Positions 1-15,876 of a DNA stretch of 64,000 nucleotides are shown one piece after another (the stretch's first letter is position 1; the number at the start of each line of letters is the position of its first letter). The stretch comes from Bacteroidales bacterium UBA3810. Its GTDB lineage: Bacteria; Bacteroidota; Bacteroidia; Bacteroidales; Paludibacteraceae. The stretch is from the NCBI GenBank assembly GCA_002368645.1, contig DFEE01000032.1, forward strand, positions 1,511 to 65,510, in the 5' to 3' direction. The notes under the pieces are model-generated. The model had not been told where the DNA came from. It was given only the letters and a program-made list of their open reading frames with translations, and made no database searches. The position numbers were made by a program, and so were the translations under genes.

Positions 1-50
1 ATAAAATTAAAATATTTTACTAAAAATTTGGTTGTTTGAAAAATTTTGTA

Positions 51-58
51 TAATTTTG
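51..58 (+). promoter_or_regulatory. Bacteroidetes-type -7 promoter box (TAATTTTG) upstream of the 93..4322 gene string
   Basis: TAATTTTG at 51-58 matches the TAnnTTTG -7 consensus. TTTG candidates for the -33 element lie at 27-30 and 35-38. The first ATG of the cassette is 35 nt downstream. Confidence 0.4.
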
Positions 59-92
59 CAGCAGAATTTTGAATATTTTAATTTTATAGTGT

Positions 93-326
93 ATGGAAAA
101 GACAGAAAAACGACAAAGATTTGAGAAAGTAGCAGGTGCGCGAGTACAGAAAGTGCTGGATACCTTACAGTTACTAAAAAATTGTTCTAACCGGAATAAT
201 TATGAGTACACAGCATCTGACGTGAATCAAATGTTCTCTGAAATATCTAAAGCCGTCAAAGGAGCACAGGCCGCATATGTCAGCGAACTAAATAAAGCCA
301 ACAAAAAAGGATTTACCTTTAAATAA
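93..326 (+). CDS. small (77 aa) Lys/Glu-rich, predicted all-helical protein of unknown function; first gene of the cassette
   Basis: The ORF starts 35 nt after the promoter box and ends 7 nt before the next ORF. There is no signal peptide and I recognise no family. Confidence 0.55.
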   Translation: MEKTEKRQRFEKVAGARVQKVLDTLQLLKNCSNRNNYEYTASDVNQMFSEISKAVKGAQAAYVSELNKANKKGFTFK

Positions 327-333
327 AAACACC

Positions 334-2325
334 ATGGACAATTCCTATATTTTCGGAAATCACACTTGGAATTTCTCTAAACAACTTGGCGGAAAAGATA
401 ATGCCGGGGATGTCGCAGAAAAATTATTTCTAAAAGATTATGCTCATTTAGTAAGAGAATCCATCCAAAATTCTCTAGATGTTGCTATAAACAAAACTAT
501 TCCGGTTAAAGTTACTTTTAGATTTGGAGAAATCACACTACGACCGGATGATGCCTTTTATAAATTGGAAGAATGGGTTGATGGCGGAATGAGAATGTAT
601 TCTAATCCTTCGACCAGGAGTTATAAAAATCTCAAAAATGTCAAAGAAGCTCTGCTAGAGATTAAAGAAAACGGTATTTTATATTATCTGGAAGTTTCTG
701 ATGAAAACACCAGAGGCATGGATTATACATCCGTAAAGAGCAAACAATCTGACACTCGTTTCTATTCATTTGCTCACAGCGAGGGAAATTCTTCAAAATC
801 CTCAAAAACAAGTGCCGGTTCGCATGGTGTCGGAAAGATTGTTTTTTACAAGATTTCTAAATTAAACACACTATTTGTGTCGTCCAAATGCGCAGAAAAC
901 GATCAGGTCCTGTTTGAAGGAATAAGCGAACTGTGTACTTCACTAGGAAAGGACGAAGAAACCAAATATCAATCTACCGGTTATTTCTGTTTAAAGCCGG
1001 ATGAGGAGCCAACAACCGCGTATGAGCTTATACCGGAACCTTTTAGACGTTCTAATTATGGAACCTCTGTATTTGCAATGGGGGTAAGTGGCGATGCAAG
1101 AGAAAAAGAGCGCAGCCTAAGGGCTATTGAAAAAGCAGTACTGGACAACTTCTGGTTATCTATTTTGCAAAACAAATTAACAGTTCAAATTGGTGATACA
1201 GAGATAAAGGGGGATGATATTTTAACTCTCGCCGACAAAATATACGGAAACCCAGAGTTATATATGACAAGTGGCTCTATAGACCCTCGCCCTTATATTG
1301 AAGCGGTTGCTTTTGCTGGCAACAAAAATCATTTACTAATCACCGACACGCTACCAGATTTAGGAGAAGTAAGTCTCTATATATCTAAAGATAAACAAGG
1401 AGATAATTATATCCAATTCATGCGTGAGACAAGAATGCTCATAAAAAAAGAAAAGCAATCAAATTATGGCTTCTATGGAGTCTTTGTATGTGATGGCGAA
1501 ATTGGAAATATTAATTTGCGAAATTCGGAAGATGCAACTCATACAAAATGGAACTCAAGCGAATGTGAAGATGAGAAGGAACGACTTAGTGCTCGAAGAT
1601 CTATTCAACAGATGAACAAATTTATTGAAGAAAATTTAGTTAAAATTTTTGGCGGAGCTAATGCCGGGAAATCAGATATCGCGGGTGCAGAAGAGTTTTT
1701 ATATATGGATGTTGCGTATGACGAGTTGGAAGATTCGGACATGGAAACCATAGTTGGTAAAACTAATGGTGAACTGCAAAAAGAAGAAAGTTCTTCCCAA
1801 ACTACATTGTTTGATGATATCTCTTTCGGCAAAAAGAACACGGAACAACATGGATATGTCAGTGTTGACAAAATCACAACAGCTTCCATTGATGAAGAAG
1901 GAGATTTGCAAGGCGGGCGTTCAGACACCCCACATATTCCAAATCCCGGTCCAATTCCACCTCCAAATCCCACTAACGAAAACAGATTCGCAGAAAACGA
2001 AGATGGTATTCAAGGACATTTTGTAAAAAATATACATGTAAAATATCGTCCTTATTTTCAGAAAGAAAACGGCACAATTTATCATTTTATCAGCCTAACT
2101 CCGTCGGAAGACTGTGAGAACGCTACAGTTGAAATAATGGTCAAGGGTGATGAAGACAAGGATAAGGACATAATATTTATCGAATCTGTCTCTATTGGGA
2201 CACCACATGAAAATAAAATAACAGACCTTTCATTTACCAAAGGTCAAAAGGTGTTGTTAAAGGTAAAATTTGAGGACAATCTTTTACACTCATTATCATT
2301 AAAAGCATATGAAGACAAAAGATAA
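334..2325 (+). CDS. GHKL-superfamily (HATPase_c / MORC-sacsin-like) ATPase, 663 aa, with acidic/Pro-rich linker and C-terminal beta-rich domain
   Basis: N-box-like VRESIQNSLDV (aa 40-50: E42, N46, D49). Degenerate G1 box VSDENTRGMD (aa 121-130). G2 box GSHGVGKIVFY (aa 162-172). Order and spacing are typical of the Bergerat fold. Pro-rich segment PHIPNPGPIPPPNPTNEN lies near aa 530-550. Confidence 0.7.
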   Translation: MDNSYIFGNHTWNFSKQLGGKDNAGDVAEKLFLKDYAHLVRESIQNSLDVAINKTIPVKVTFRFGEITLRPDDAFYKLEEWVDGGMRMYSNPSTRSYKNLKNVKEALLEIKENGILYYLEVSDENTRGMDYTSVKSKQSDTRFYSFAHSEGNSSKSSKTSAGSHGVGKIVFYKISKLNTLFVSSKCAENDQVLFEGISELCTSLGKDEETKYQSTGYFCLKPDEEPTTAYELIPEPFRRSNYGTSVFAMGVSGDAREKERSLRAIEKAVLDNFWLSILQNKLTVQIGDTEIKGDDILTLADKIYGNPELYMTSGSIDPRPYIEAVAFAGNKNHLLITDTLPDLGEVSLYISKDKQGDNYIQFMRETRMLIKKEKQSNYGFYGVFVCDGEIGNINLRNSEDATHTKWNSSECEDEKERLSARRSIQQMNKFIEENLVKIFGGANAGKSDIAGAEEFLYMDVAYDELEDSDMETIVGKTNGELQKEESSSQTTLFDDISFGKKNTEQHGYVSVDKITTASIDEEGDLQGGRSDTPHIPNPGPIPPPNPTNENRFAENEDGIQGHFVKNIHVKYRPYFQKENGTIYHFISLTPSEDCENATVEIMVKGDEDKDKDIIFIESVSIGTPHENKITDLSFTKGQKVLLKVKFEDNLLHSLSLKAYEDKR

Positions 2326-3199
2326 ATTATTACCATACCCTGTTCTTGGGAATTACGATGCAGTATATCCATTACTGACGAGCGATGCCGTTGTTTTTCC
2401 AGTTCCTGAAAGAGATGATAATGACTATATTTTTCATATTGAATTAAATCAGCGCAATCAAGATATTACCAAACTAATCAAGGAAGGGAAAGCGGAATAC
2501 CTCTGCGAAGTGTATTGTAAAAACACACTACTTCGACAACGGTACACATCATCTGAACCTATATTCGACTTTCGATTAGGGCGTAAAGTTGTTAATGGCC
2601 ATGTAGATTTAGAGTTTTATGTAGTCCTTACACAAGATATTCGATACACAAATATCGGATTTAACGATGACTTTGCCGGTTTATCATTTGATTTAGAGAG
2701 AGGCAATATTCTTGTTGCATTTCCTTCTGCTTGGTTTAATGCAAAAATTGAGAATGAAAAAATGTTTGCATTAGGTTCTTTCGTAAAGGTGATAGGCGCA
2801 GATGTACAAGATTTAAGTATTGATTTTGGCAAAAATGAAGCTGTTTATATACAGTTACCACGAAGGATGTATGAGCAGTACGAAAATACTATCAAACCAG
2901 ACCGAGATTTTAAAGAAATTATAATTTCATCTATTCTACATGATGCTTTAATAAGGATTATTACTAATTATAATAAAGAACGAGACGATGATAAAACCTG
3001 GGCAGATGCCCTCAAACGAAGAATTGAAGGTTTGAATGAAAAATCACACAAGACCTTCAGATTACGCCCTGAAGATGCTATTGACATTGCCGATGGCCTT
3101 CTTCAAAATCCTTATCCAAGACTATTTGATTCCCTCATCGTTCTTCATCAAAGACTAAAAATGAGTAATACCCAATCAGAACCTAATTCAGAGCAATAA
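2309..3199 (+). CDS. hypothetical protein (296 aa), overlaps the ATPase gene by 17 nt
   Basis: Long ORF in operon context with a 17-nt overlap on the upstream gene. I recognise no catalytic motif, signal peptide or TM segment. Confidence 0.65.
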   Translation: MKTKDKLLPYPVLGNYDAVYPLLTSDAVVFPVPERDDNDYIFHIELNQRNQDITKLIKEGKAEYLCEVYCKNTLLRQRYTSSEPIFDFRLGRKVVNGHVDLEFYVVLTQDIRYTNIGFNDDFAGLSFDLERGNILVAFPSAWFNAKIENEKMFALGSFVKVIGADVQDLSIDFGKNEAVYIQLPRRMYEQYENTIKPDRDFKEIIISSILHDALIRIITNYNKERDDDKTWADALKRRIEGLNEKSHKTFRLRPEDAIDIADGLLQNPYPRLFDSLIVLHQRLKMSNTQSEPNSEQ

Positions 3200-3201
3200 T
3201 T

Positions 3202-3948
3202 ATGGAACTGCAAAAGATTTATAAAACCAAGTATGTCAACTATTTAAGTGACAATTTTGTAAAGGAATCTTACCTTCAGGATAAATTTATCGCAGAAAAC
3301 CCGCAGGTTTTACCACTGAAAGATATATACAATAATGCAAGTGTATTAATAGAAAAAATGATTCCTGATAGTAAGCATGACTTTGAGTCTGCTGTTGCAC
3401 TTTATGAAGCATATCCGAATCTTACTCCCCTTGTTGCGTCTCAGGCTTCACTTTGGGTATATTTAGCTCACAACGAACTATTTAGTTACGTTCAGAAACG
3501 CTGGAAAGTCTCTGCTAATTCAACAGAAGAACGTATGAAAAAACAATGGTTTGATAATGGAGAAAGCGGAACATTATCCGGTTTATGGTGGGCTGTATAT
3601 TTAACTGTGGATGAGGATAGAGAAGATAAATACGAACTAACAAGAACATTATTCCAGAATCAAACTTTCAGAACTCGAACGTTCTTTACTTACCGTATAG
3701 GTAAATGTAGGGAAGCGCTACAAGGTGTTCTTGGTTTTATGACTGACAATAAAGAATTATTTAAAGGTCATGAAGAAGCTCGAGCAACGTATGTATCTCT
3801 ATATTTCAGCCGTCTTGGGACTACTAAGGAGTTGCCATATATGGATAAAGAATTCTTCTATAACGAATTAAATAAAAAACGTAGAGCAATTGAACTGGCT
3901 GTAGACAGAGAAAATGTCCGCCACAACCATGAAATTTGGAATATATAA
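3202..3948 (+). CDS. hypothetical Trp-rich helical protein (248 aa)
   Basis: Starts 2 nt after the previous stop. Conserved-looking segments are SLWVYLAHNELFSYVQKRW and LSGLWWAVYLTV. I cannot assign a family. Confidence 0.65.
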   Translation: MELQKIYKTKYVNYLSDNFVKESYLQDKFIAENPQVLPLKDIYNNASVLIEKMIPDSKHDFESAVALYEAYPNLTPLVASQASLWVYLAHNELFSYVQKRWKVSANSTEERMKKQWFDNGESGTLSGLWWAVYLTVDEDREDKYELTRTLFQNQTFRTRTFFTYRIGKCREALQGVLGFMTDNKELFKGHEEARATYVSLYFSRLGTTKELPYMDKEFFYNELNKKRRAIELAVDRENVRHNHEIWNI

Positions 3949-3959
3949 TACACACACCT

Positions 3960-4322
3960 ATGAAAAAACTATTTATCCTTTTAGCAGCGGCGATGATGAT
4001 ATTATCGGCATGCAACAACAAGTTAACCGTAGAACAGGCTGAATCGGCTGTGATGCAAGGCGAAAAAGACAGACTGCCATTACTATTGCAGACACTACCT
4101 TTCTTGGATGATATTACCATTGATAGTATTCGTCTAAATATAAAAGATGAACCAATGCAAGGTTATCTATATACCACTTGGAAAAGCGGCAAGAAAGAAA
4201 AGTTAATCATTGTACCGGTAGATAGTATTCAAACGGATGCCACTCGCAAAGATTATATCCAATGGCAAAGTCATTGGGATGATGCTGCGCGCGCATACCT
4301 CATGAAAAGTTTAGGACTTTAG
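3960..4322 (+). CDS. small lipoprotein (about 120 aa)
   Basis: Internal ATG at 3960 gives MKKLFILLAAAMMILSAC with a lipobox (LSAC). The track ORF start at 3936 overlaps the previous gene and lacks the signal peptide context. Confidence 0.55.
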   Translation: MKKLFILLAAAMMILSACNNKLTVEQAESAVMQGEKDRLPLLLQTLPFLDDITIDSIRLNIKDEPMQGYLYTTWKSGKKEKLIIVPVDSIQTDATRKDYIQWQSHWDDAARAYLMKSLGL

Positions 4323-4623
4323 CACCCGCACAACCCCCCAAAAAAGTTGTTTTTAAGGTGATAGATTCGGACTCTTTTTTGACTTATATATGGAGGGGTA
4401 TATAAAACACGAATCTATTAACACTAAACACAACCGCACATGAACACAACAACACATTTTGACCCTTGGCATGACAGGCACACAATCAATATGGAACCGG
4501 AACAGATGGACAGGTTCTCGGACGAGGACAGCCTGTTTGCCGGACAACCAACCGGAAAATGCACCGCCATGCCCTTGCAGCACTCACAAAACATATGAGT
4601 AATAAACTAAACATCCTTGTATT

Positions 4624-6048
4624 ATGACAAACAACTACACCGAAGGGAGCATACGGGAGATTGTTGCGGCGCAACGCCGGTTCTTCCGCTCCGGCGCGAC
4701 CCTGCCTGTCTCATGGCGTATCGAACAACTCAAGCGGCTCAAAGCGGCAGTCATCGCCTATGCGGACAGGTTTACCGCGGCATTGACAGAAGACCTCGGC
4801 AGAAGCGAGGTGGAGGCATACCTATGCGACGTAGGACCAAACATTGTGGAAATCAATGAAATGATTAGTCATCTCCGCCGCTGGGCAAGACCGGAGTTGC
4901 ATTTCAGCGGTCTGATGTGTTTTCCCAGTCTGTTCACAAAAGTATATAAGATGCCATACGGCGTAGCGCTCGTTATCAGTCCGTTCAATTTCCCGATCTT
5001 CCTGACTATCGGCGTAGTGGCAGCTGCTATGGCGGCAGGGAACACCGTCGTCATCAAATCAAGCTCCAAGTCCGCAGCCTGTACGGCGGTGCTGAAGCGG
5101 TTCTTCGCCGAAGCCTTTCCGCCGGAATACATCACGCTCATTGACGGTGGACACGACGTAGCGGATATGTGCCTGGCGCAGCGGTTTGACAAGATTTTCT
5201 ACACCGGCTCCCCTACCGTGGGCAGGCATGTAATGGCGGAAGCTGCCAAGAACCTGACGCCCGTAGCGTTGGAGTTAGGAGGAGAGACGGGTAACTGGGC
5301 GGTCGTTCGCAAGGACGCTGACCTCAAGGACACGGCGCGCAAGATAGCATGGTTCAAGTCCGTCAATGCCGGACAGATATGTATCAACATTAACCAGATA
5401 GCCGTAGCGGAAGAAATAGCAGAACTGTTCCTGGAGGAGCTGAAGCGCGCTTTTGTACAGCAGTTAGGCGAACATCCGGAGACGAACGATGAGTATCCGA
5501 AACTCATCATCGCCGCAGCGTACGACAAATGTGCACGAGAGGCGGAAGAGTACCGGGAGCGAATCATCTTCGGCGGGGTAGGAAACAAAGAGACGCGCAA
5601 GTACGCGCCGACCATCATCTACCCGGTGGGAATCCATGAGCCTGTTGTTCAGCACGAGTTGTTCTGTCCGCTGCTGCCGGTAGTGCCCTTCAAGGACGCG
5701 GAGGTAGATGCACTGATGGACGTGATAGCGGACCGCGAACACCCCTTGGCGATGTATCTCTTCACAAAAAACAGGAAGTGGGCGGACCGCGTGATGCAAA
5801 CCCGGCAGTTCGGAGGCGGCTGCATCAATGAAGTATGCATTCATATGATGGTCAAAGGAGTGCCGTTCAACGGTACAGGGCACTCGGGAATGGGTGTCTA
5901 CCACGGCGAATGGGGATTCAGGGAGTTCACCCACCCGCAGACAGTACTGCGTGGCAGCACAATCTTCAACCTGCCGCTGCGCGAACATCCCTACGGCGGA
6001 GAGAATGGCAAACGGAAAATGAGGCTGCTGAGGCTTTTCGAACGATAA
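4624..6048 (+). CDS. NAD(P)+-dependent aldehyde dehydrogenase (class-3-like ALDH family)
   Basis: 474 aa. Contains ELGGE (counterpart of the ELGGK motif), the catalytic-Cys region NAGQICIN and the C-terminal motif FGGVGNSGMG-like (NGTGHSGMGVYHG). Confidence 0.88.
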   Translation: MTNNYTEGSIREIVAAQRRFFRSGATLPVSWRIEQLKRLKAAVIAYADRFTAALTEDLGRSEVEAYLCDVGPNIVEINEMISHLRRWARPELHFSGLMCFPSLFTKVYKMPYGVALVISPFNFPIFLTIGVVAAAMAAGNTVVIKSSSKSAACTAVLKRFFAEAFPPEYITLIDGGHDVADMCLAQRFDKIFYTGSPTVGRHVMAEAAKNLTPVALELGGETGNWAVVRKDADLKDTARKIAWFKSVNAGQICININQIAVAEEIAELFLEELKRAFVQQLGEHPETNDEYPKLIIAAAYDKCAREAEEYRERIIFGGVGNKETRKYAPTIIYPVGIHEPVVQHELFCPLLPVVPFKDAEVDALMDVIADREHPLAMYLFTKNRKWADRVMQTRQFGGGCINEVCIHMMVKGVPFNGTGHSGMGVYHGEWGFREFTHPQTVLRGSTIFNLPLREHPYGGENGKRKMRLLRLFER

Positions 6049-6060
6049 ATAACAATACTA

Positions 6061-6845
6061 TGAAACGATTTCTTTATCTAACGGCAGTAATGGTATTAAC
6101 CATCAGCTGCCAGCATTCGGCAGATAGTCGTCCTGCTCCGCAGGCAGGCAGGGTAGAGCGGGACACATTGGCCGGAGTGCCTTGCTGCGTGTATCTGCCT
6201 GCCGGTTATAGCCAAGTGGCCGGGGCACAGAAATTTCCGGTGCTGTACCTGCAGCACGGGATGTACGGAAACGAAGATGACTGGACGTCAAAGGGTCGTT
6301 TGGTAGAGATAATGGACTCGCTGCTGCAGGCCGGCGAGGTGAAAGAGATGGTGGTAATCATGCCGGATAACTGTCCGTCTTATCCCACGTCGGAAGAGGA
6401 GCGTGCCCATGCGATGAACGGTGAATGGATAGCACGTTTTGTGGATTTCATGGCGGCCTCAGAAGCCCGGTACGCCATCAGCAGTGCGCCCTCGCAACGC
6501 GCCATCGCCGGGCTCTCTATGGGCGGGTTCCATACGATGCATGTCAGTCATCATCTCGCCGGAGAGTTCGCGTATGTAGGACTCTTCTCCGCGGCTATAC
6601 TACCTGTTGAAGCCCATCCGATATATGACAACTGGGAACAGGAAGTGCGCGAACAGATGCAGTCCACACGGCTCTACTGGATAGGTATCGGGCGAGAGGA
6701 TTTTCTGTATGACTTCAATACCGAATACCGCCGCTGGCTGGAGCAAAACGACATCGAATATACCTACTACGAGAGCCTGGGCGGACACACATGGGACAAC
6801 TGGCAGAAGTACCTATGCCGATTTCTGAAGAAAGTGACCTTTTAA
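6061..6845 (+). CDS. esterase-family alpha/beta hydrolase lipoprotein (esterase D / enterochelin-esterase-like)
   Basis: Start chosen at MKRFLYLTAVMVLTISC (lipobox). GLSMGG nucleophile elbow (GxSxG). The track ORF start at 5835 overlaps the ALDH gene by about 200 nt and is rejected. Confidence 0.8.
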
Positions 6846-6864
6846 CTTGCAAACAACAAATAAT

Positions 6865-7308
6865 ATGAAACGACTATTCTTTCTTTTCGCCGTTGCGGTA
6901 GTGGCTGCAGGAGCAATGGCACAAGGTCCTCAGGGGCCGCGTGGGCATCATAACGACCGGCACGGGCATGGCGACTCGCACCGCCGGCCGCCGATGGAAC
7001 AGCGGTATTACGATTGCGCATCTGCCGAACAGATGCAAGCGGTCATGGACGCACTCAACGGACAATCGTTTGACGACAAGAAACTGGAGATCGCCAAACT
7101 ATGCGTCACCATCGGCTATTTCTGCACGGCGGACATGGCACAGATGGCCACGGTGTTCTCCTTCGACGACAAACGGCTGGAGTTCCTCAAATACGCCTAC
7201 CCCTATTGCCTCGATAAAGAGAACTACCCCACGCTGCGCGAGAGTTTCTCCTTCAAGTCGAACTTCGACGCCTTGCTGGACTATATCTACCCGAATATGC
7301 GGAAATAA
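6865..7308 (+). CDS. secreted protein, DUF4476-like C-terminal domain (tentative)
   Basis: Signal peptide MKRLFFLFAVAVVAAGAMAQ, then a His/Arg-rich segment. The C-terminal FSFDDKRLEFLKYAYPYCLDKENY pattern resembles Bacteroidetes DUF4476 proteins from memory; not verified. Confidence 0.55.
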   Translation: MKRLFFLFAVAVVAAGAMAQGPQGPRGHHNDRHGHGDSHRRPPMEQRYYDCASAEQMQAVMDALNGQSFDDKKLEIAKLCVTIGYFCTADMAQMATVFSFDDKRLEFLKYAYPYCLDKENYPTLRESFSFKSNFDALLDYIYPNMRK

Positions 7309-7328
7309 TCCTATAAACACCAACAACT

Positions 7329-7484
7329 ATGTCCTGTTTACAAGTTCTATTAGCTGTTATCTTTCCGCCGCTGGCGGTGATTGACCGCGGATGCGGATCG
7401 GTACTGATTGTCTTTATCCTCACCTGTCTCGGATGGTTGCCGGGAGTGATTGGCGCGTTAATCATTCTCAATAAGAACAAGTGA
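7329..7484 (+). CDS. Pmp3/YqaE (UPF0057) family small membrane proteolipid, 51 aa
   Basis: Not in the ORF track because it is under 60 aa. Translation MSCLQVLLAVIFPPLAVIDRGCGSVLIVFILTCLGWLPGVIGALIILNKNK shows the family hallmarks: FPPLAV, two TM helices and GW-PG. Confidence 0.75.
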   Translation: MSCLQVLLAVIFPPLAVIDRGCGSVLIVFILTCLGWLPGVIGALIILNKNK

Positions 7485-7495
7485 TAACGAAAACA

Positions 7496-7876
7496 ATGAG
7501 AAAGACCATTGAGGTTGTAGCGGCGGTTATTTTTGACGAGCAAGGACGAATATTTGCCACGCAACGAGGCTACGGAGAATGGAAAGACTGGTGGGAGTTT
7601 CCGGGAGGCAAAATGGAAGCCGGCGAGACGCCCGAGCAGGCTTTACGCCGCGAAATACACGAAGAATTAGCCGCGGAGATAGAGGTTGGTGAGTTGCTGA
7701 GGACGATTGACTATGACTACCCTGATTTCCATTTGACGATGCATTGTTTTATGTGCAGGCTGGAGGGGCGCGTTACGCTTCTTGAGCATGAAGCCGCCAA
7801 ATGGCTTGCACCATCTGAACTCGATTCAGTACGCTGGCTGCCGGCAGATGAGGAGATAATCGAAAAACTGAAATAG
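7496..7876 (+). CDS. NUDIX hydrolase (MutT-like)
   Basis: Nudix box GGKMEAGETPEQALRREIHEELAAEI (Gx5Ex7REUxEExGU). The ATG at 7496 is preferred over the GTG at 7481. Confidence 0.85.
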   Translation: MRKTIEVVAAVIFDEQGRIFATQRGYGEWKDWWEFPGGKMEAGETPEQALRREIHEELAAEIEVGELLRTIDYDYPDFHLTMHCFMCRLEGRVTLLEHEAAKWLAPSELDSVRWLPADEEIIEKLK

Positions 7877-8068
7877 CAGTTTCTCTTCATTGCCGATTAT
7901 TAAGATTCGGACGAGATACCAACATCCGTCTAACTCTGCATAAACAATCTTTTTCGCTTATATTTTCCCCTATACAGGCAATGTATGAATAATACGGAGA
8001 TTTCTAACCGTAATTTAATGCAGATTTTCACTAAAATACGAATAAATAGCTCTAAAAACCGTTATTTA

Positions 8069-8082
8069 GTGCAAATTTGCAC
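8069..8082. promoter_or_regulatory. perfect 14-bp palindrome GTGCAAATTTGCAC (operator-like)
   Basis: Perfect dyad symmetry in the intergenic region. It is flanked by direct repeats AAAATACGAATAAA and AAAATACGGATAAA. Confidence 0.3.
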
Positions 8083-8099
8083 AAAAATACGGATAAACA

Positions 8100-8131
8100 T
8101 TTGCACAATTCAAAAAAAAGTAGTATCTTCG
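8100..8131 (+). promoter_or_regulatory. candidate promoter (-33 TTTG / -7 TATCTTCG, 20-nt spacer)
   Basis: TTTG at 8100-8103 and TATCTTCG at 8124-8131, one mismatch to TAnnTTTG. No protein-coding ORF follows; the 138-nt hairpin does. Confidence 0.35.
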
Positions 8132-8197
8132 GCACGCCCCTTAAAAGGGAACCCTCCGAAAATATGGTCGCATTATGCTGAGCATACGCGCTCATAA

Positions 8198-8335
8198 AAG
8201 TACATTTTTTTCGCAAAAGGGATGTATCCCTTCTATTTTATATCTGCTGACGGCTTATGTATGCAAGCATCCAAATCCGGCAACTGATATAAAATAATAG
8301 AATGAATTCTATTTTTTGCGAAAAAAAATGTACTT
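8198..8335. repeat. 138-nt imperfect inverted repeat (long hairpin)
   Basis: Outer arms AAGTACATTTTTTTCGCAAAA (8198-8218) and TTTTGCGAAAAAAAATGTACTT (8314-8335) are complementary with a 1-nt bulge. Inner arms CTATTTTATATC (8233-8244) and GATATAAAATAATAG (8286-8300) pair with a 3-nt bulge. Confidence 0.6.
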
Positions 8336-8338
8336 ATA

Positions 8339-8370
8339 TTTGCGTATGTGCAAAATTTGTTGTATCTTTG
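8339..8370 (+). promoter_or_regulatory. promoter of the 8439 ATPase gene (-33 TTTG, -7 TATCTTTG)
   Basis: TTTG at 8339-8342, a 20-nt spacer, then TATCTTTG at 8363-8370. Confidence 0.5.
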
Positions 8371-8438
8371 CACCCGAAAGCAAAATAACTCATTCTATTG
8401 AGTAAAAATACTAAGTGTATTGAGTAAAAATTTGAAGT

Positions 8439-9626
8439 ATGATGCAGCGTACTTATTTTGAATCGATTACGAAGCGATTAAATGAGCCAAGAAAGTTCAT
8501 TCAAATCATCGAAGGACCTCGTCAGGTCGGTAAATCAACGCTTATCAAGCAAGTACTAAAGAGCCTTTCGATGGCTTGGGTGCATTTCTCTGCAGATAAT
8601 GTGCCGGCAACTCGTTCAGCTTGGATCAGCGATTGTTGGGCTACGGCGCGCAATAAACTCCAGATGGAGAAACTTCCCGAGTTGCTGCTGGTTATTGATG
8701 AGGTACAAAAATTACTGAACTGGGGTGAAGTCGTCAAGAAAGAGTGGGATGACGATTCCTTCAATGATGTGCCCATCAAAGTAGTGCTGTTAGGTTCGTC
8801 CCGCGTACGTTTGGAAAAAGGACTAAGCGAAAGCCTCAAAGGACGTTTTGAGACCATTAAAATGCCAAACTGGTCTCTTGCAGAAATGCAAGAAGGCTTT
8901 GGGATGACCATCGACGAATATATCTATTTCGGGGCTTATCCGGGAGCTGCTGATTTGCGTCATGACTTGGATAGATGGCAGGAGTATATCAGTAGTTCCA
9001 TTGTGGACGCGACGATAAACAACGACATTTTGATGGACACTCCTATCGCCAAACCGGCGTTGTTACGTCAGACTTTTGAGTTAAGCAGCGCTTATTCCGG
9101 ACAAGAAGTGTCGCTGACTAAGATGATTGGACAGTTGCAAGACGCTGGAAACACCACTACACTCGCTCATTATTTAGATCTGCTCAAGCAAAGCGGCATG
9201 GTTTGTGGGCTTACTAAGTATGCCGTTGATAAAGCACGCCGCCGTAACTCTATCCCCAAGTATCAAGTCTATAACAATGCATTGATGAGTCTCTATTGCG
9301 AGCATGATTTTGAAGCGGCAAGGGCTGATCATAAATTATGGGGGCGGTTGTTTGAATCCGCAGTCGGAGCACATATCATGAATTGCGCTTATACCGGGCG
9401 GTTTAATGTTTATTATTGGCGCGATGGAGGAGATGAAGTAGATTTTGTATTAGTAAAAGATACAAAGGTCGTGGCTATAGAAGTGAAAAGTAATCACGAA
9501 AAAGACACTTCCGGTCTGCATACTTTCCAAGAGAAATTCCATCCTCATCGATCTGTTCTGGTGGGCGAAGAAGGCATTCCTATTGAGACTTTCTTGGAAT
9601 CAGACTTAAAAGAATTGTTTACGTAA
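8439..9626 (+). CDS. AAA_14 ATPase with C-terminal DUF4143 (PD-(D/E)xK-like) domain
   Basis: Walker A GPRQVGKST and Walker B LLVIDEVQ. The C-terminal DEVDFVLVKDTKVVAIEVKSN fits a D...ExK nuclease-fold signature. Confidence 0.85.
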   Translation: MMQRTYFESITKRLNEPRKFIQIIEGPRQVGKSTLIKQVLKSLSMAWVHFSADNVPATRSAWISDCWATARNKLQMEKLPELLLVIDEVQKLLNWGEVVKKEWDDDSFNDVPIKVVLLGSSRVRLEKGLSESLKGRFETIKMPNWSLAEMQEGFGMTIDEYIYFGAYPGAADLRHDLDRWQEYISSSIVDATINNDILMDTPIAKPALLRQTFELSSAYSGQEVSLTKMIGQLQDAGNTTTLAHYLDLLKQSGMVCGLTKYAVDKARRRNSIPKYQVYNNALMSLYCEHDFEAARADHKLWGRLFESAVGAHIMNCAYTGRFNVYYWRDGGDEVDFVLVKDTKVVAIEVKSNHEKDTSGLHTFQEKFHPHRSVLVGEEGIPIETFLESDLKELFT

Positions 9627-9677
9627 TTCAATGATTTGTAGCACTTTTGTTGTGAAATAAGGCTTACAATCCTAAAA

Positions 9678-9712
9678 CACACGGGCGACTCATTCTTTGA
9701 GCCGCCCGTGTG
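9678..9712 (-). terminator. GC-rich hairpin (copy 1 of a repeated module); T-run follows on the minus strand
   Basis: CACACGGGCG (9678-9687) pairs with CGCCCGTGTG (9703-9712). On the minus strand the stem is followed by TTTTAGG. The hairpin lies between two convergent genes. Confidence 0.5.
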
Positions 9713-9837
9713 AATAAATCTCAAATTAGAAAGTTCGCTTGCGTAAAACGTGTCCCTCAGGGCTAAGAATAATCGTTCGAACTATGCGAGATAAGAAATC
9801 CTCAAATTTCCAATGTAAAACTTTTGGCCGTTACGGT

Positions 9838-11049
9838 TTATAACTGATTCATGCTCAGGAAATGACGCAAATGGATGTGTTTGATTCCTTCCACATCAGA
9901 GATAGAATTGAGCGGATTCATTGAAATGGCCATCTTCGGATAGTTGTTTTTGATAGCTTGCAGATTTCCAAACTCTCTCTTCTCGGTCTCTTCGTCAGCT
10001 ATTAAATAGGCTACTTGTATATATATGGTCTCTTCTCCTTTTTCTGCCACAAAATCAATCTCCGCATTCCGTAACTGCCCGACATGCACGGTATAACCCA
10101 ACCTCAGAAGATGCAGATACACGGCATTCTCAATCCGCTTCTCAATATCATTCGTTTGACGCGTACGGACAAGTTTGTTGCGTATTCCAAGATCCTCGAA
10201 ATAGTACTTGTCATTGCTCTCTAACAGTTGTTTGCCATGAATGTCATACCGCTGAACCCGATAGGTGAGATATGCATTGCAAAGGTATTTGAGATAATTC
10301 TGAATAATGACCGAAGAAAGATTCTCTCCCTGCGAACGAAGGTATTTCATGATCGAGTTTGGAGAAACCAACTTGCCGATAGTATCGCTCACAAAACGGC
10401 TGAGATTGATAAACGAGGTGACATTCCGTATTTGTTCGCGCTGCACAATATCCTTCAACACTATGGTGTCATAAACGCTTTGGATATAGTTCTTTATCTG
10501 CTCCGTATGTTCTAGACCAATAAGTCGCAAATACGGCAGACCGCCCCACAGGAGGTATTTCTCCAAGGCTGCATCGCTGTCCTGCAACTGATGAAAATAG
10601 AGGAACTCGGTATAACTGAGCGCGTGAATAGGTATCTCAATATACCGTGCAGCCAGCAGTGTGGACAATTCGCTACTGAGCATCTTCGCATTGCTGCCGG
10701 TTATTACCACATCCGTTTCTGGCTGTTTGATCCAACTCCGCAACGAACGCTCGAACCCTAAAATATCTTGTATCTCGTCTATGAGGATATAGTTGTGTTT
10801 ACCTTGCGCAATATGAGCGGATAGGTACGCATTCAACTCCTCATGCGTGGTGATTGTATCAAACGCAGCGTCTTCCTTGTCAATATAGATGATATTGGCA
10901 TTAGGATCTGTCTGCTTCTCTTGCGCCAGCAAACGCAGGCACATACTTTTTCCCACACGGCGTTGCCCCGTGAGAACGATGATAATTTGTTTGCCGAGCC
11001 ATTGAGTGATTGCTTGCGTGTAGTACTCTCTGTGTAATAGTTCTTCCAT
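9838..11049 (-). CDS. AAA_14 ATPase with DUF4143-type C-terminal domain (nuclease motif degenerate)
   Basis: Walker A GQRRVGKS and Walker B YILIDEIQ. The C-terminal AEIDFVAEKGEETIYIQVAY has QVA where the paralog has EVK. Confidence 0.85.
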   Translation of the reverse strand: MEELLHREYYTQAITQWLGKQIIIVLTGQRRVGKSMCLRLLAQEKQTDPNANIIYIDKEDAAFDTITTHEELNAYLSAHIAQGKHNYILIDEIQDILGFERSLRSWIKQPETDVVITGSNAKMLSSELSTLLAARYIEIPIHALSYTEFLYFHQLQDSDAALEKYLLWGGLPYLRLIGLEHTEQIKNYIQSVYDTIVLKDIVQREQIRNVTSFINLSRFVSDTIGKLVSPNSIMKYLRSQGENLSSVIIQNYLKYLCNAYLTYRVQRYDIHGKQLLESNDKYYFEDLGIRNKLVRTRQTNDIEKRIENAVYLHLLRLGYTVHVGQLRNAEIDFVAEKGEETIYIQVAYLIADEETEKREFGNLQAIKNNYPKMAISMNPLNSISDVEGIKHIHLRHFLSMNQL

Positions 11050-11072
11050 AGTACTTTTTTTTAAAATCGCTG

Positions 11073-11080
11073 CAAAGATA
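11073..11080 (-). promoter_or_regulatory. -7 box TATCTTTG (minus strand) for the 9838..11049 gene
   Basis: The plus strand reads CAAAGATA, 24 nt upstream of the ATG at 11049. Confidence 0.45.
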
Positions 11081-11185
11081 TAAATTTAATTTAATATATG
11101 CAAATTATTTTGCAAAAATCTAAAGTATATTTAATATTTTATGTGTTTTTGTCGAAAATATTAAGTATATTTACCATTAATACAA

Positions 11186-11216
11186 CACACGGGCGACTCA
11201 TCGAGCCGCCCGTGTG
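11186..11216 (-). terminator. GC-rich hairpin (copy 2 of the repeated module)
   Basis: Same arms as copy 1: CACACGGGCG and CGCCCGTGTG. Same 3' flank GTGAATAAATCTCAAAT as the copy at 9678-9727. Confidence 0.45.
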
Positions 11217-11503
11217 AATAAATCTCAAATGTGAAATCTCAAATCTAAAATGTAAAACAGAGTTTACCTTACCTCTTGTCCTTGGAGAGTATATACCATC
11301 AGCGCAGCGTCAGCGCAAGGTTTGCTGATTTATGGTCATTTGAAACGGGATGGATTCGAGATGATAGCGGTAATGGTTAATGATGACTAAGAATATATAA
11401 GAACAACTAACGCTCAATTTTTGAACATAGCGTTCGAAAAAAAATGCTCTGCTCTATTTGCACTACTGCACTTTGGAGGGGGAAAGTGCAGAAAGTGCAA
11501 CAC

Positions 11504-11544
11504 AAAAAAAATCCCACATATGCAAATATATGCGGGACTTTTTT
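11504..11544. terminator. bidirectional-looking hairpin flanked by an A-run and a T-run
   Basis: The sequence reads A8, then TCCCACATAT, then the loop, then ATATGCGGGA, then CTTTTTT. There is one mismatch in a 10-bp stem. It lies about 30 nt downstream of the small minus-strand ORF. Confidence 0.45.
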
Positions 11545-11572
11545 GGTGAATTATACACAATTTTGTGTAATA

Positions 11573-11698
11573 TTACCACTGTACTGGGTTGACGGTAGAA
11601 CCTTTATCCATGGTCATATTGGCACTTCCGGGGTTCATCAATGCCGAACTTTCGATATGTGCTACTTGCACTTCGGGTTGATTATACGTACGTTTCAT
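11573..11698 (-). CDS. candidate 41-aa small ORF downstream of the 917-aa surface protein gene
   Basis: Not in the track because it is under 60 aa. Translation: MKRTYNQPEVQVAHIESSALMNPGSANMTMDKGSTVNPVQW. It sits 33 nt after the upstream stop and is followed by a terminator-like hairpin. It resembles short MKKxYxxPxxxV ORFs I recall from Bacteroidales genomes; unverified. Confidence 0.3.
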   Translation of the reverse strand: MKRTYNQPEVQVAHIESSALMNPGSANMTMDKGSTVNPVQW

Positions 11699-11731
11699 AA
11701 AATCTCAAATTTTAAATTTCAAATATCAAAT

Positions 11732-14485
11732 TTATTTGATCACCTGGCCCTGTGCGTTGTACTTCACACCGTTCTTGATGATGAACAATTGACCATTCTC
11801 GATGACCTTCTGAGAGCTGATAGCTGAAGGCTGAACGCTCTCCATGCCTGTTGCGGTCTGTTCCTCGCTGAAGACGAAGCGCAGACGACGCGGTGCGTTA
11901 TTAGCACCACCGGGCAGGTTATCGAGGTCGATATATGCCTTGTGTGCCGAGAGTGTATACGGAGCTGACAACGGATAGAAACCAACGAATCCGTCTGCGC
12001 CACTCAATACGTAGCAATGCTCAGAAGGAACTTCCATATTCACATCGGTACCGCGCAAAGCGTTGTTCTCTACGGAAACCGGACTTGCTGCACTCGGGGT
12101 GAGGGTGAAGTCGGCCTGCGATGCTCTGAGAACCACAGCCGTTGCTGCAGGCAGGATATCGCCTGCACCCGCCACTTTCTTGAGCAGCATCTTGTCACCG
12201 CTTACGGTAGCTGTATATGCCTCTACATTAGCCGGCAGTTGCAGCTGACGCGAACCGTCATAGAACGTGCTGTAGTAAACACCATCGTTCACCGGATCCG
12301 GTTTGGCTGTGATATCGACATTCAATGAAGCATATGCATCTTCGGCATCAGTCAGCTTCTGAAGCGTACTTGCATCTATGAGATTTTTCTGAGCCTGCGT
12401 CAAGTTGTTATAAGCCTCACGTGCATCCAGTATTTCTTGGTGGCATGCGTCTGTATAAACAACCGGGTCGTCAATAGCGTTGATCAGATCGATAACTGCA
12501 TCCGCAGCCGCGTGATCAGCCACTAATGCCGCATAAGCAGCCTCGGCATCGGTCAGTTTCTGAAGCGTGGTTGCATCTACGAGTGCTTTCTGTTCTGCGG
12601 TCAGCGCTTCATACGCCGTGCGTGCGGCCGTGATCTCGTCATGACAAGCGGTGGTATAAACAACCGGGTCGTCGATAGCGTTAATCAGATTGACTACTGC
12701 GAGTGCGGCTTCGGCATCGGTCAATTCGCTACAGTTGGTTACATAACCCTTTTGTGTATCGGTCAGCGCGTTGTAAGCCGCACGTGCATCTTCGATAGCC
12801 GTTTGGCTGGTAGCAGTAATCGGCGAACCGATAGCATTAATCTTATCGATCACTGCATCCGCAGCCGCGTGATCAGTCACTAAGGTATTATATGCGGCTT
12901 CCGCATCGGTCAGTGTAGCGTAGTTACCCACCAAAGCTTGCTGGTCGTCGGTCAGCGCGTTGTAAGCTGTACGAACGTCAGCAATAGTAGAACCGCTACT
13001 TAAAGTTACCTCTCCGATGGCAGCAATCTGATTGACTACTGCGAGTGCAGCCTCGGCATCGGTCAGGGTGCTTAAGTTACCTACCAATGCTTTCTGGTCA
13101 TCGGTCAAGTGGTCGTAAGCGTTATGAGCGGCATCGATAGCCGTTTGGCTTGCTGCGGTAATCGGCGAACCGATAGCATTAATCTGATTGACTACTGCGA
13201 GTGCTGCTTCGGCATCGGTCAGGGTGGTGTAGTTGGTAACCAGTGCTTTCTGTTCTGCGGTTAGCGCATTATATGCCGTACGAGCGGAAGAGATAGCCGT
13301 TTGGCTCGCTGCTGTAATCGGCGAACCGATAGCGTTAATCTGAGCAATAACGGCATCCGCTTTCTGCTGATCACTCTGGGCGATGGTCACTTGGAAGTTG
13401 GAACCGCTGTTACCGTTATAATTGGTGTTACCTACTACTTGATAATACACGGTATAGGTGCCCACGTCCGTTCCGGTAGGAATAGATGTGCCCCACGAAC
13501 CGTTGCCTACCTTATATTGCATCGTACCACCGGTAGTTGAACCGGCGTTGACCAATGCTTGTGCCGAACCGGTGTATTTCAATCCTGATTTAGCCGTCGG
13601 AGCAGTTACCGACGGATTGGCTTTGGCGATTGTAACTTGTACACTTCCTGTTCCACTATCTGAAGCACCACCGGTTCCTTTTGCATAGTATTGAACGGTA
13701 TAAGTGCCGGCATTGGTAGCTGTAGGAATAGATGTGCTCCAAGAACCGCTGCCTACCTTATAATACATCGTACCATTCGAAGCTACACCGGCGTTGACCA
13801 ATGCTTTCGCGGAACCGTCATAAGTAAGACCGGTCTTAGCTGTAGGAGCAGTCGTCACCGAAGCTTGATTGACTTGCCAGTTAGCGGTGTAACTCTTGTT
13901 GCCGGTCGAACCTTTGGCAATCGAAACGCTGGTTTGTTTCGTATTACCATTACTTCCAGTCCAACCGGTAAACGTGTAACCGCTACGCGTCGGGTTCTTG
14001 AGCGTAAAAGTAGCGGTCTCGATGTTATAACTCGTCGGGTTACCACTTACCGTACCGCTGTTGAGCGTATAAGAGATCGTGTAGTTTACAGGCGCATAGT
14101 TAACCTGTATCTGGTCGGCAATGTAGTTACCATAGGATGACAAGGTAGTGCTAGTGCTGTTGACATTGCTGACGGTAACGGTGGTACCCGCAGTAGGGTT
14201 GGTGTTACTTAGGGTTCCCGGAGAAGCATTGATATCGTAACTATTATCATAAGCAGAATAAACTCTAAATTCAACTGAGGTAATAGTATATCCCGCCGAT
14301 ACGGAAATCTCTACAGGCATACTCATTAAAACTTTATTAGCACTAACTTGCCAGCACTTCACAGTAACCGGAATGTCTGTATTATCGCCTTTCACAAAAC
14401 TGGTGAACGTCTTGGTGCCTGCCCACATACCCTGCGCTATCGCTAATAGCGCTGTTAGTAAGAAAAATAGTTTAACTTTTCTCAT
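11732..14485 (-). CDS. secreted cell-surface repeat protein (Listeria-Bacteroides repeat, two Ig-like repeats, six helical repeats, C-terminal sorting-like motif)
   Basis: Signal peptide MRKVKLFFLLTALLAIAQG. YTISYTLNSGTVSGNPTSYNIETATFTLKNPTRSGYTFTGWTG matches the Listeria-Bacteroides (Flg_new) repeat. There are two roughly 80-aa copies of TAPTAK.GL.Y.GSA.ALVNAG...GTM.YKVG.GSW and six helical repeats. The C-terminus is ENGQLFIIKNGVKYNAQGQVIK. Confidence 0.85.
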   Translation of the reverse strand: MRKVKLFFLLTALLAIAQGMWAGTKTFTSFVKGDNTDIPVTVKCWQVSANKVLMSMPVEISVSAGYTITSVEFRVYSAYDNSYDINASPGTLSNTNPTAGTTVTVSNVNSTSTTLSSYGNYIADQIQVNYAPVNYTISYTLNSGTVSGNPTSYNIETATFTLKNPTRSGYTFTGWTGSNGNTKQTSVSIAKGSTGNKSYTANWQVNQASVTTAPTAKTGLTYDGSAKALVNAGVASNGTMYYKVGSGSWSTSIPTATNAGTYTVQYYAKGTGGASDSGTGSVQVTIAKANPSVTAPTAKSGLKYTGSAQALVNAGSTTGGTMQYKVGNGSWGTSIPTGTDVGTYTVYYQVVGNTNYNGNSGSNFQVTIAQSDQQKADAVIAQINAIGSPITAASQTAISSARTAYNALTAEQKALVTNYTTLTDAEAALAVVNQINAIGSPITAASQTAIDAAHNAYDHLTDDQKALVGNLSTLTDAEAALAVVNQIAAIGEVTLSSGSTIADVRTAYNALTDDQQALVGNYATLTDAEAAYNTLVTDHAAADAVIDKINAIGSPITATSQTAIEDARAAYNALTDTQKGYVTNCSELTDAEAALAVVNLINAIDDPVVYTTACHDEITAARTAYEALTAEQKALVDATTLQKLTDAEAAYAALVADHAAADAVIDLINAIDDPVVYTDACHQEILDAREAYNNLTQAQKNLIDASTLQKLTDAEDAYASLNVDITAKPDPVNDGVYYSTFYDGSRQLQLPANVEAYTATVSGDKMLLKKVAGAGDILPAATAVVLRASQADFTLTPSAASPVSVENNALRGTDVNMEVPSEHCYVLSGADGFVGFYPLSAPYTLSAHKAYIDLDNLPGGANNAPRRLRFVFSEEQTATGMESVQPSAISSQKVIENGQLFIIKNGVKYNAQGQVIK
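12320..13369 (-). repeat. six intragenic tandem repeats (52-67 aa each) inside the surface protein gene
   Basis: Repeat starts at aa 379, 431, 483, 545, 597 and 664. Consensus: V(I/V)xxINAIGxxxxxSxxxIxxARxAYxxLTxxQKxLVxNxxxLTDAEAA. Long near-identical DNA segments are visible, for example CCGATAGCATTAATCTGATTGACTACTGCGAGTGC. Confidence 0.8.
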
Positions 14486-14562
14486 AATTGAAATTGTTTT
14501 TAGTTAATATTTAATTAGCTATATATACACGAAAAAAGCGTGCGTTTTGCGTTCGCTTCAAT

Positions 14563-14700
14563 TTGATGATTTGAGGTCCTAGACTTACCTTAACTATTCA
14601 AATTTACGCACGGAAAACTCACGCTGACACGTGAGCGTGCATAAACCGTGCTTGAATAGTTAATGATTTTGTAAACTTGTCTAGGGTTTCAAATCATCAA
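14563..14700. repeat. 138-nt multi-stem inverted repeat in the 5' region of the surface protein gene
   Basis: Outer arms 14563-14584 and 14679-14700 give 22 positions, 19 Watson-Crick plus 3 that are G-U only in a plus-sense transcript. Inner perfect 12-bp stem pairs 14590-14601 with 14652-14663. The inner hairpin CTCACG/CGTGAG pairs 14618-14623 with 14630-14635. Confidence 0.6.
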
Positions 14701-15316
14701 GTCGGGCTTATTACGCTTAAGTATGTATGTGGCGCACGCTTGCGCCAACGATGCAAAAATCCTTTGCGCTGCAAAGGTACACAAAAAAAATGACATATGC
14801 AAGAAAATATGTCATTTTTGTATATTTTTAGTGTTTTTCGGCTTATAACGCTATTTATGGCGCACGCTTTGCGCCTATTTGCTATGTCCTCCTGTTTAAC
14901 GTCAGTGAGTGACGGTGGTTTATGCTTTGGGCAATTGAGGTAGCCCAGAGATATTGTTGGTTATTGCATTTTGCGCTGCAAAGATACTATTTTTTAATGA
15001 GTTCTGCAAAAAAAAGTGAGAATTTTGCACTTATTGGTGCAAAACGTTGCAAGAAAGAAAATAAATGTATATCTTTGCAGGCAAAGATGGATTGTGTAGG
15101 CGCGTAGCTGACGTTGCTTGCAGCCGACGAAGAGAGACAGATAGGTAAGAGGAGAAAAATCAGAGGGTATCAGAGGGGAAAGGTAATGATTAATGGAGAT
15201 GCGGCGTTGAAGCGGCTTAGCCAGGGACCATGAACCCAAGTACCCTATATTAATGGTGACAGGTGAAGGATGAAGCCTATATGATAAGTGCATGAAGAGT
15301 CGGGGATCTATGCAGA

Positions 15317-15393
15317 ATTGTGCGTTTATTGTGCGTTTATTGTCCGTTTATTGTGCGGTTATTGTCCGGTTATTGTGCGGTTATTGTGCGGTG
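15317..15393. repeat. 11-bp tandem repeat x7 (ATTGTSCGKTT)
   Basis: Seven contiguous units: ATTGTGCGTTT x2, ATTGTCCGTTT, ATTGTGCGGTT, ATTGTCCGGTT, ATTGTGCGGTT, ATTGTGCGGTG. Confidence 0.85.
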
Positions 15394-15428
15394 TGGTCGC
15401 GTTACAGTCAGCGTGATTTTCGTTATCA

Positions 15429-15476
15429 GGATACCGGGATACCAGGATACCAGGATGCCGGGTAACCGGTGACCGG
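15429..15476. repeat. 8-bp tandem repeat x6 (GGATACCR-type)
   Basis: Six units: GGATACCG, GGATACCA, GGATACCA, GGATGCCG, GGTAACCG, GTGACCGG. Confidence 0.8.
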
Positions 15477-15868: not shown

Positions 15869-15876
15869 TCAATAGG

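Follow-up and report, generated by a model that had tools for sequence, protein, structure and literature searches.

Closest described systems and the locus

GHKL ATPases of the MutL and MORC type have been described together with cytosine methylases and Vsr in restriction-modification operons (Iyer, Abhiman, Aravind 2008; PMC2292703). Within the literature searched, the only GHKL-based defence found to be experimentally validated is the anti-phage protein VcSduA (Shedu type I-D, paraMORC3), whose activity requires the GHKL ATPase at its N-terminus, with a clamp-like middle domain (PMC12137116); it sets a precedent for immunity under GHKL control. Another system, PDC-M33, was predicted as one of 145 guilt-by-embedding phage defence candidates (Payne et al., bioRxiv 10.1101/2024.01.29.577857), where it is defined as cassette CAS_00129 with the order FAM_02818>>FAM_02838>>FAM_01881. 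Here we analyse a low-GC gene cluster at the left end of a 64,000-nucleotide (nt) stretch of contig DFEE01000032.1 of Bacteroidales bacterium UBA3810 (the window, with positions counted from its first base). Its three core genes match PDC-M33 and, together with the small protein p77 encoded ahead of them and the Vsr and C5 methylase encoded upstream, they may form a controller-regulated, methylation-linked and GHKL-driven restriction-like defence system, a reading that we hold tentatively, as quite possible though short of probable.

The cluster shares with the MORC and paraMORC groups the combination of a GHKL domain and an S5 transducer, the neighbourhood of cytosine methylase, Vsr and HNH genes, and a sporadic and laterally mobile distribution, whereas it has no superfamily II helicase, no partner of the restriction-endonuclease fold and no MORC-specific motif. 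The likeness to paraMORC2, judged by the described motif, extends to an ExxxH at the C-terminal end of the transducer, which corresponds to E399 and H403 of the window's ATPase; however, paraMORC2 was described mainly from cyanobacteria and Gram-positive bacteria (PMC2292703), whereas the present family is found mainly in Bacteroidota. In contrast to VcSduA, a single protein that ends in a DUF4263 PD-(D/E)xK nuclease, the ATPase of the window has two or three separate partners, and no DUF4263/Shedu match was obtained with Pfam or PADLOC among the five proteins encoded in the cluster. The joint presence of a MutL-like GHKL ATPase, Vsr and Dcm also resembles the MutL-Vsr-Dcm set, but the ATPase has neither the MutL C-terminal domain nor a Pfam MutL match, two partners are dedicated to it, and in many loci Vsr or Dcm is missing.

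The core trio corresponds to PDC-M33

By profile comparison, the three core genes are the already catalogued PDC-M33. The 663-amino-acid (aa) protein, A, matched the PADLOC model PDC-M33A with an E-value of 3e-69 (residues 11-660 on model positions 4-625 of 627), the 296-aa protein, B, matched PDC-M33B (6.5e-43; residues 1-279 on positions 1-282 of 289), and the 248-aa protein, C, matched PDC-M33C (PDLC04586; 1.1e-26) as well as the Pfam family DUF6339 (6e-41). The hidden Markov model matches are full-length, to the same three families in the same order, and the PDC-M33 arrangement A>>B>>C, adjacent and co-directional, is found at window 334-3948. The trio is therefore catalogued and not unnamed, whereas the earlier note on this DNA had seen no match to any named system. 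The 248-aa protein was the only one of the five recognised by Pfam, and for the 77-, 663-, 296- and 120-aa proteins Pfam, NCBIfam and PHROGs gave no significant family, with weak sub-threshold matches at most.

PDC-M33 is defined as three genes, to which the window locus adds p77 with a palindromic candidate operator, and co-transfer with dcm and vsr; we found neither feature described earlier in our literature searches. The features of the cluster are the following:

334-2325, + strand: PDC-M33A, 663 aa, full-length PADLOC match, GHKL fold
2309-3199, + strand: PDC-M33B, 296 aa, PADLOC match
3202-3948, + strand: PDC-M33C, 248 aa, DUF6339 by Pfam, also matched by PADLOC
93-326, + strand: p77, 77 aa, from the list of open reading frames
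51-58, + strand: -7 promoter box TAATTTTG (TAnnTTTG, Bacteroidota type), 35 nt before the p77 ATG
1-92, + strand: right part of the intergenic regulatory region that separates p77 from the upstream C5 methylase, from the L081 alignment
3960-4322, + strand: lipoprotein, 120 aa, lipobox LSAC, signal MKKLFILLAAAMMILSAC

The five open reading frames are on the same strand, as first reported, with 7 nt between the first and second, a 17-nt overlap of the second and third, and gaps of 2 and 11 nt at the next two junctions. The consensus promoter box recognised at 51-58 likewise stands and fits the Bacteroidota -7 box: TAATTTTG is one of just two + strand TAnnTTTG matches within 1-4322, and equivalent TAtaTTTG boxes lie ~30-40 nt ahead of the ATG in nearly all p77-carrying loci. 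A sigma-70 promoter and terminator scan, the model of which does not cover Bacteroidota promoters, performed no better than on shuffled sequences.

A genome scan for the family yielded 257 loci, of which 80 were fetched and examined. The left side of the window locus was followed in L081, part of a 268-kb metagenome scaffold retrieved through the exact 663-aa protein, in which positions 9668-21992 are 100% identical to window 1-12325.

A is a GHKL ATPase with an intact ATP site

Subunit A comprises a GHKL (Bergerat) domain and S5-like transducer (residues 1-440), which a disordered, acidic linker (442-509) joins to a C-terminal domain rich in beta structure (510-660). The ATP-binding residues E42, N46 and D49 (N box), D123 and G128 (G1), and G162, G165, G167 and K168 (G2) are 100% conserved in 75 homologues. 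The AlphaFold model has a predicted local distance difference test score (pLDDT) of 76.6 overall and of ~90 over residues 1-440, and Foldseek matched it with a probability of 1.00 to Topo VI-B, GyrB/ParE, the Topo II ATPase, MORC3, GRP94 and PMS2, with template modelling scores (TM-scores) of just 0.3-0.48 on the target. The invariant ATP motifs and these structural matches bear out the Bergerat-fold ATPase that had been recognised from the sequence.

The family is large, with 6409 representatives at 50% identity for E<=1e-3 and 1767 for E<=1e-30. At the end of the transducer, E399xxxH403..W406 is also 100% conserved in the 75 sequences. The MORC-specific motif GhXhhpXXRhl, read by eye on the alignment consensus, is not present in A: the consensus surrounding R364, an invariant residue, reads KDKxAxDxILYMRKxxMLIK and lacks both the G at -8 and the hydrophobic pair that should follow the R. 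A metal site formed by H584, D648, H652 and E660 was considered and set aside as speculation; these residues are invariant in 30 close homologues, and just D648 stays at >=93% in the 75 broader sequences.

The trio travels with dcm, vsr and p77

A, B and C are found in identical order in every uncut locus of the 80. The start of B overlaps the stop of A in 74 of 74 loci (median junction -14 nt) and the B to C junction has a median of +2 nt, an arrangement that fits translational coupling of the three genes and the formation of a complex by their products. Of the partners named in the earlier note, which had proposed a co-occurrence check on the 77-, 296- and 248-aa proteins, the latter two are thus constant companions of the ATPase, whereas the 77-aa protein is an accessory (25 of 80 loci) and the lipoprotein probably does not belong (2 of 80).

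In L081, p77 (from 9760) is preceded by genes for Vsr (7891-8268) and for a 451-aa C5 methylase (PF00145; 8255-9610), so that the supposed lack of a methyltransferase was an artefact of the window edge. The segment L081 7842-13644, from vsr through C, is 98% identical in a Paludibacteraceae metagenome-assembled genome (L001) and in a rumen Bacteroidales metagenome-assembled genome (L002), and the flanks of the three are otherwise unrelated. Because this identity is found within differing flanks, the transferred unit is vsr-dcm-p77-A-B-C, of ~5.8 kb, and no other endonuclease is encoded in it alongside dcm and vsr. The AT-rich block is part of this horizontally moving cassette, of which the window holds the right-hand two thirds. 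Its composition, previously judged by eye, is confirmed by a GC fraction of 0.32-0.40 over 1-4250 against 0.51-0.57 over 4500-7000, and the low-GC island begins ~1.8 kb to the left of window base 1, at about L081 7500-7850, in agreement with the remark that its left boundary is cut. Beyond these close copies, PDC-M33 is sporadic, being common in gut and rumen Bacteroidota and present on Lactococcus, Deinococcus, actinobacterial and haloarchaeal plasmids.

The extent of the cassette bears directly on the proposal of the earlier note that all five genes form one operon, of a previously unnamed system with no methylase. All five reading frames are co-directional, closely spaced and of low GC, and the lipoprotein gene trails the system in L002 and L003 too; it is, however, missing from 78 of the 80 loci and lies outside the 98% identical segment; in L001 another reading frame takes its place, and in L002 an insertion has displaced it. 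With the trio being PDC-M33, and methylase and Vsr encoded directly upstream on the same contig, we consider the five-gene version very improbable, and the lipoprotein is probably no component of the system but a passenger, low in GC, at the island's right edge. The defence-type interpretation itself was reasonable, but the system had already been catalogued and its boundaries were misjudged. In the lipoprotein slot, L001 carries a different 133-aa reading frame (13628-14029), which has just the first ~18 nt in common with it, and L002 carries that 133-aa frame plus a 90%-identical copy of the lipoprotein gene (~7960-8781).

No direct repeats flanking the island were found, and a search for an empty insertion site by means of the flanking aldehyde dehydrogenase gene returned occupied sites only. 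Immediately beyond the left edge of the island, at L081 7466-7550, a 41-nt element occurs twice in tandem with a spacing of 44 nt (85% identity), and a GC-rich, structured-looking region of ~200 nt (L081 7640-7840) ends where the mobile cassette starts; neither this region nor the rest of the left border gave a match in Rfam and tRNA scans. Farther to the right, the window contains two AAA_14/DUF4143 ATPase genes (8439-9626, + strand, and ~9838-11049, - strand) in a patch of lower GC (0.33-0.40 at ~8000-8500 and 10750-11500), the second of them flanked by a ~54-nt repeat, 91% identical, at 9673-9726 and 11181-11230.

C5 methylases and defence genes surround the trio

A C5 methylase is encoded within 6 kb of the trio in 39 of the 80 loci, and in 18 of the 36 that have at least 5 kb of sequence on both sides. 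Among 121 immediate neighbours, DNA_methylase (19) and Vsr (11) are the commonest Pfam families, the others including HNH_2, HpaII, MutH/Sau3AI-like, Mrr_cat, GIY-YIG_2, HsdM, Schlafen, WYL and Fic. The wider neighbourhoods also hold type I and type II restriction-modification, McrBC-like, Mrr, HNH and AbiGI/II genes; they are restriction-modification and defence islands, which is the setting that the earlier note had suggested checking for. Linkage to the methylase is correlated with the presence of p77, being found in 20 of 25 loci with this gene against 19 of 55 without it (odds ratio 7.6, p = 2e-4).

The linkage is observed across phyla. A Deinococcus plasmid has the order dcm-vsr-x-p77-A-B-C, a conjugative plasmid of Paenarthrobacter has p77-A-B-DUF6339 beside a type II endonuclease and dcm, and on a plasmid of the archaeon Halorussus dcm is divergent from A-B-DUF6339. 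A distant A-B-DUF6339 trio, with ~25% identity in A, is encoded on the Lactococcus lactis plasmid pS127 (L101; NZ_CP061323.1, 106588-110213), one of a set of dairy conjugative plasmids, between an AlwI-family endonuclease and abiGI/abiGII, with no dcm listed.

Two recurrent arrangements were observed around the trio. In L031 (9860-15700), as well as in L007, L015 and L021, it adjoins a module encoding a C5 methylase, a 194-aa protein, a ~622-aa AAA_5/PDC-M26A-like (McrB-like) protein and a ~781-aa DUF2357+PDDEXK_7 (McrC-like) protein, and similar modules are present in L008, L027, L030, L051, L054, L058 and L065. This module looks like a 5-methylcytosine (m5C) restriction-modification system of the LlaJI/McrBC type. 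Such systems resemble the proposed one in being NTP-dependent, multi-subunit restriction systems beside C5 methylases, but they are separate neighbours with a P-loop NTPase and a PD-(D/E)xK nuclease, and the trio has neither. In L089 (1549-11742; also in L090-L092), the four-gene system is flanked on one side by a gene for a 467-aa Sau3AI/MutH-like protein (with Vsr) and on the other by two C5 methylase genes, and a second, different GHKL protein (HATPase_c_3 + Hypoth_Ymh) then follows.

The frequency of vsr and dcm, the two commonest immediate neighbours, could also indicate a DNA-repair function in support of m5C methylation, in which the MutL-like ATPase and its two partners would assist Vsr in very-short-patch repair and ride on mobile dcm-vsr pairs. 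E. coli MutL acts in Vsr-dependent very-short-patch repair (PMC2292703), the association is with the class of C5 methylases and not with one specificity, and no nuclease was found in A-B-C, whereas Vsr is one. However, Vsr is encoded near the trio in just ~20 of the 80 loci and half of the loci are without both vsr and dcm, the trio is also found inside type I restriction-modification systems and beside Abi genes, and its sporadic distribution, low GC and location on plasmids or islands are typical of defence genes. A putative dedicated autoregulator with a candidate operator, moreover, suggests a toxic product, and we regard the repair function as improbable.

p77 and a co-inherited palindrome

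The p77 gene encodes a helical, basic and highly conserved protein (KRxRFEKVAxxRV...NCSNRNNYEY...DVxxMF) and, where present, stands directly upstream of A, its stop being separated from the start of A by 7 nt in the window and by a median of 5 nt over 24 loci. Its presence is patchy on the A tree, with ~11 losses or gains, so that p77 is a dispensable, accessory fourth gene. The family comprises 3935 protein-database clusters, and the three members that were sampled are all encoded upstream of GHKL-B-DUF6339, which points to p77 being specific to PDC-M33; with all three in this position, a role as a regulator common to other systems was ruled out.

In the aligned upstream regions, p77 is preceded by the dyad ACTAYA-N9-TRTAGT, in extended form CTAYATTT-nnn-AAATRTAG. 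The core CTAYA-N9-TRTAG is present in 18 of the 25 p77 loci, no more than 260 nt ahead of the gene, whereas in the 55 loci that lack p77 it is never found ahead of A. A further 15 matches are scattered over the rest of 1.26 Mb, most of them within reading frames, from which ~0.1 would be expected by chance. In the contig of the window the palindrome is ACTATATTTTGAAAATGTAGT, at L081 9625-9645, ~22-42 nt to the left of window base 1. The p77 homologue of the Deinococcus plasmid (34% identity, hhalign 98%, E 3e-14) is preceded, 13 nt before its ATG and in otherwise GC-rich DNA, by ACTATATTTCATATATGTAGT, and that of Paenarthrobacter by a version with one mismatch. The palindrome was observed upstream of every p77 clade, including L102 (5729-5749) and L097 (6833).

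The controller (C) proteins of type II restriction-modification systems, such as C.PvuII, C.AhdI and C.Esp1396I, act through C-boxes and time the expression of the restriction genes. p77 resembles them in being small (C proteins have ~80 aa), upstream of and co-oriented with presumed toxic genes, preceded by a dyad-symmetric candidate operator, and carried on a methylase-linked mobile cassette; it differs from them in giving no match to an Xre-type helix-turn-helix in Pfam or PDB profile searches, and in the sequence of the operator and its distance from the promoter. A small basic protein at the head of the operon, a co-inherited candidate operator and a methylase on the same mobile cassette lead us to infer that p77 may be a controller-type autoregulator, with the palindrome as its putative operator.

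A perfect 17-nt inverted repeat, TATAAAATTAAAATATT / AATATTTTAATTTTATA, was also noticed at window 1-16 and 72-88 (L081 9667-9683 and 9739-9755). The promoter box at 51-58 lies between its two arms, the second of which stops 4 nt short of the p77 ATG. The repeat is not obviously conserved in L003; because it is AT-only, a chance origin is not negligible.

Subunits B and C

The N-terminal part of B contains the strongly conserved peptide LPYPVLG, followed in the structural model by a beta-sandwich (~39-184) and a helical bundle (185-289). The best AlphaFold model has a pLDDT of 78.9, the other four reaching just 58-65, and in Foldseek searches against the PDB it matched only generic FnIII-like sandwiches (best E 4e-3). 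No catalytic fold could be recognised in B, which is probably an adaptor or an unrecognised effector. A Topo VI-A/Spo11-like fold and a PD-(D/E)xK nuclease were considered for B, and are ruled out by the beta-sandwich and helical-bundle model.

Most of the residues conserved in C are aromatic (W85, Y96, W129 and W130). In L035, the C homologue (12796-14457) has 554 aa, of which the C-terminal 140 residues match SBDHga1 (PDB 8h0l) with an E-value of 1e-9. This sulfur-binding domain is a reader of phosphorothioate DNA. This fusion and the mostly aromatic conserved residues suggest, as a proposal drawn from sequence, that C contacts DNA or reads its modification state. The extra domains of other long C variants (N-terminal in L047, a C-terminal extension in L076) have no detectable relatives, and no meaningful match was obtained when A, B, C and p77 were compared with PDB sequences, either singly or as profiles. 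A hypervariable region of the kind expected for target recognition was looked for in A, B and C and none was found, just residues 461-560 of A (linker and early C-terminal domain) being less conserved.

A restriction-like defence linked to methylation

If the genes act together as proposed, A would dimerise on binding ATP and clamp or loop DNA, C would read DNA or its modification state, and B would bridge A and C and may carry an unrecognised effector activity, the three probably assembling into a single complex directed at incoming DNA. The host genome would carry the mark of the linked Dcm and so be spared by the complex, and Vsr would repair the T:G mismatches that arise from 5-methylcytosine, limiting its mutagenic cost. 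p77 would bind ACTAYA-N9-TRTAGT upstream of its own promoter, and delay or limit the expression of A-B-C after entry into a new cell. In the window's own contig the methylase, putatively the cognate one, is present beside the restriction candidate.

Several points weigh against this reading. The anti-phage role of PDC-M33 is that of a computational candidate, one of 145, and literature searches for PDC-M33 and DUF6339 returned no papers. No helix-turn-helix was detected in p77 with Pfam or PDB profile searches. The searches run found no nuclease among p77, A, B and C, in line with what had first been noted, and no other effector fold, with Pfam, NCBIfam, PADLOC, PHROGs, PDB profiles and Foldseek applied to p77, A and B, and C covered by sequence only. 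About half of the loci are without a C5 methylase within 6 kb, including the p77-positive L093-L096. Where a methylase is linked, it often has a candidate endonuclease of its own (HNH_2, Sau3AI/MutH-like, HpaII, a McrBC-like pair or an annotated type II enzyme), and may therefore belong to a neighbouring restriction-modification system in which the trio is merely embedded. Finally, at 40% identity the linked methylases fall into 14 clusters or more, which rules out one methylase specificity for all loci and, together with the absence of a hypervariable region in A, B and C, argues against the sequence-specific reading of one methylation pattern.

The methylase-related points are equally those that favour another explanation, in which A-B-C, with or without p77, is a self-contained and methylase-independent defence that inserts preferentially in or beside m5C restriction-modification loci. 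The embedded trio may then be type IV-like, either modification-dependent or sensing foreign DNA, and complement its host system as BrxU and GmrSD do in BREX and Hma. PDC-M33 was itself defined by its embedding in known systems, and in L046, L050, L063, L008 and L089-L092 the trio is enclosed either by the methylase and Vsr genes or by those for endonuclease and methylase. The position of the Lactococcus copy between the AlwI endonuclease and AbiGI/II is of the same kind, and the domain fused to C in L035 is typical of modification-dependent enzymes. Simple embedding, however, does not sit well with the 5.8-kb unit of the window, in which dcm and vsr are accompanied by no further endonuclease, nor with the bias to C5 methylases (39 loci) over HsdM-type N6 methylases (~6 loci), which recurs in four phyla including archaea, and the controller-like regulator is most frequent exactly where the methylase is linked. 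We regard the self-contained defence as possible but doubtful, and the methylation-linked, controller-regulated restriction-like system as the reading to which we give, tentatively, more weight.

In a more radical form of the methylation-linked system, A-B-C would be a nuclease-free, MORC-like machine that tells 5-methylcytosine-marked host DNA from incoming DNA, the latter being neutralised either by ATP-driven clamping or compaction (silencing) or by a catalytic fold of an entirely new kind, located in B, in C or in the C-terminal domain of A. We consider this form unlikely.

Significance

In eukaryotes, GHKL/MORC ATPases link DNA methylation to the silencing of foreign DNA, whereas for their relatives in bacteria gene context has, since 2008, been the only tie to restriction-modification. 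The interest of the present locus is moderate, and rests on the question of the effector, on a link to methylation that extends across domains of life and on a new, putative regulator-operator pair. The locus is a compact, natural unit of six genes, 98% conserved, comprising a methylase, Vsr, a putative regulator and three structural genes, which permits clear experiments, and the Lactococcus plasmids represented by L101 provide an experimentally tractable host for PDC-M33. If p77 and its palindrome are a controller and its operator, they would constitute a new family, informative on how such cassettes establish themselves in new hosts. Should the nuclease-free, MORC-like form of A-B-C be the right one, it would provide the methylation-linked MORC silencing of eukaryotes with a counterpart among prokaryotes, and possibly with an ancestor, having its own new class of controller, p77, and an operator kept from Bacteroidota to Deinococcota and Actinomycetota.

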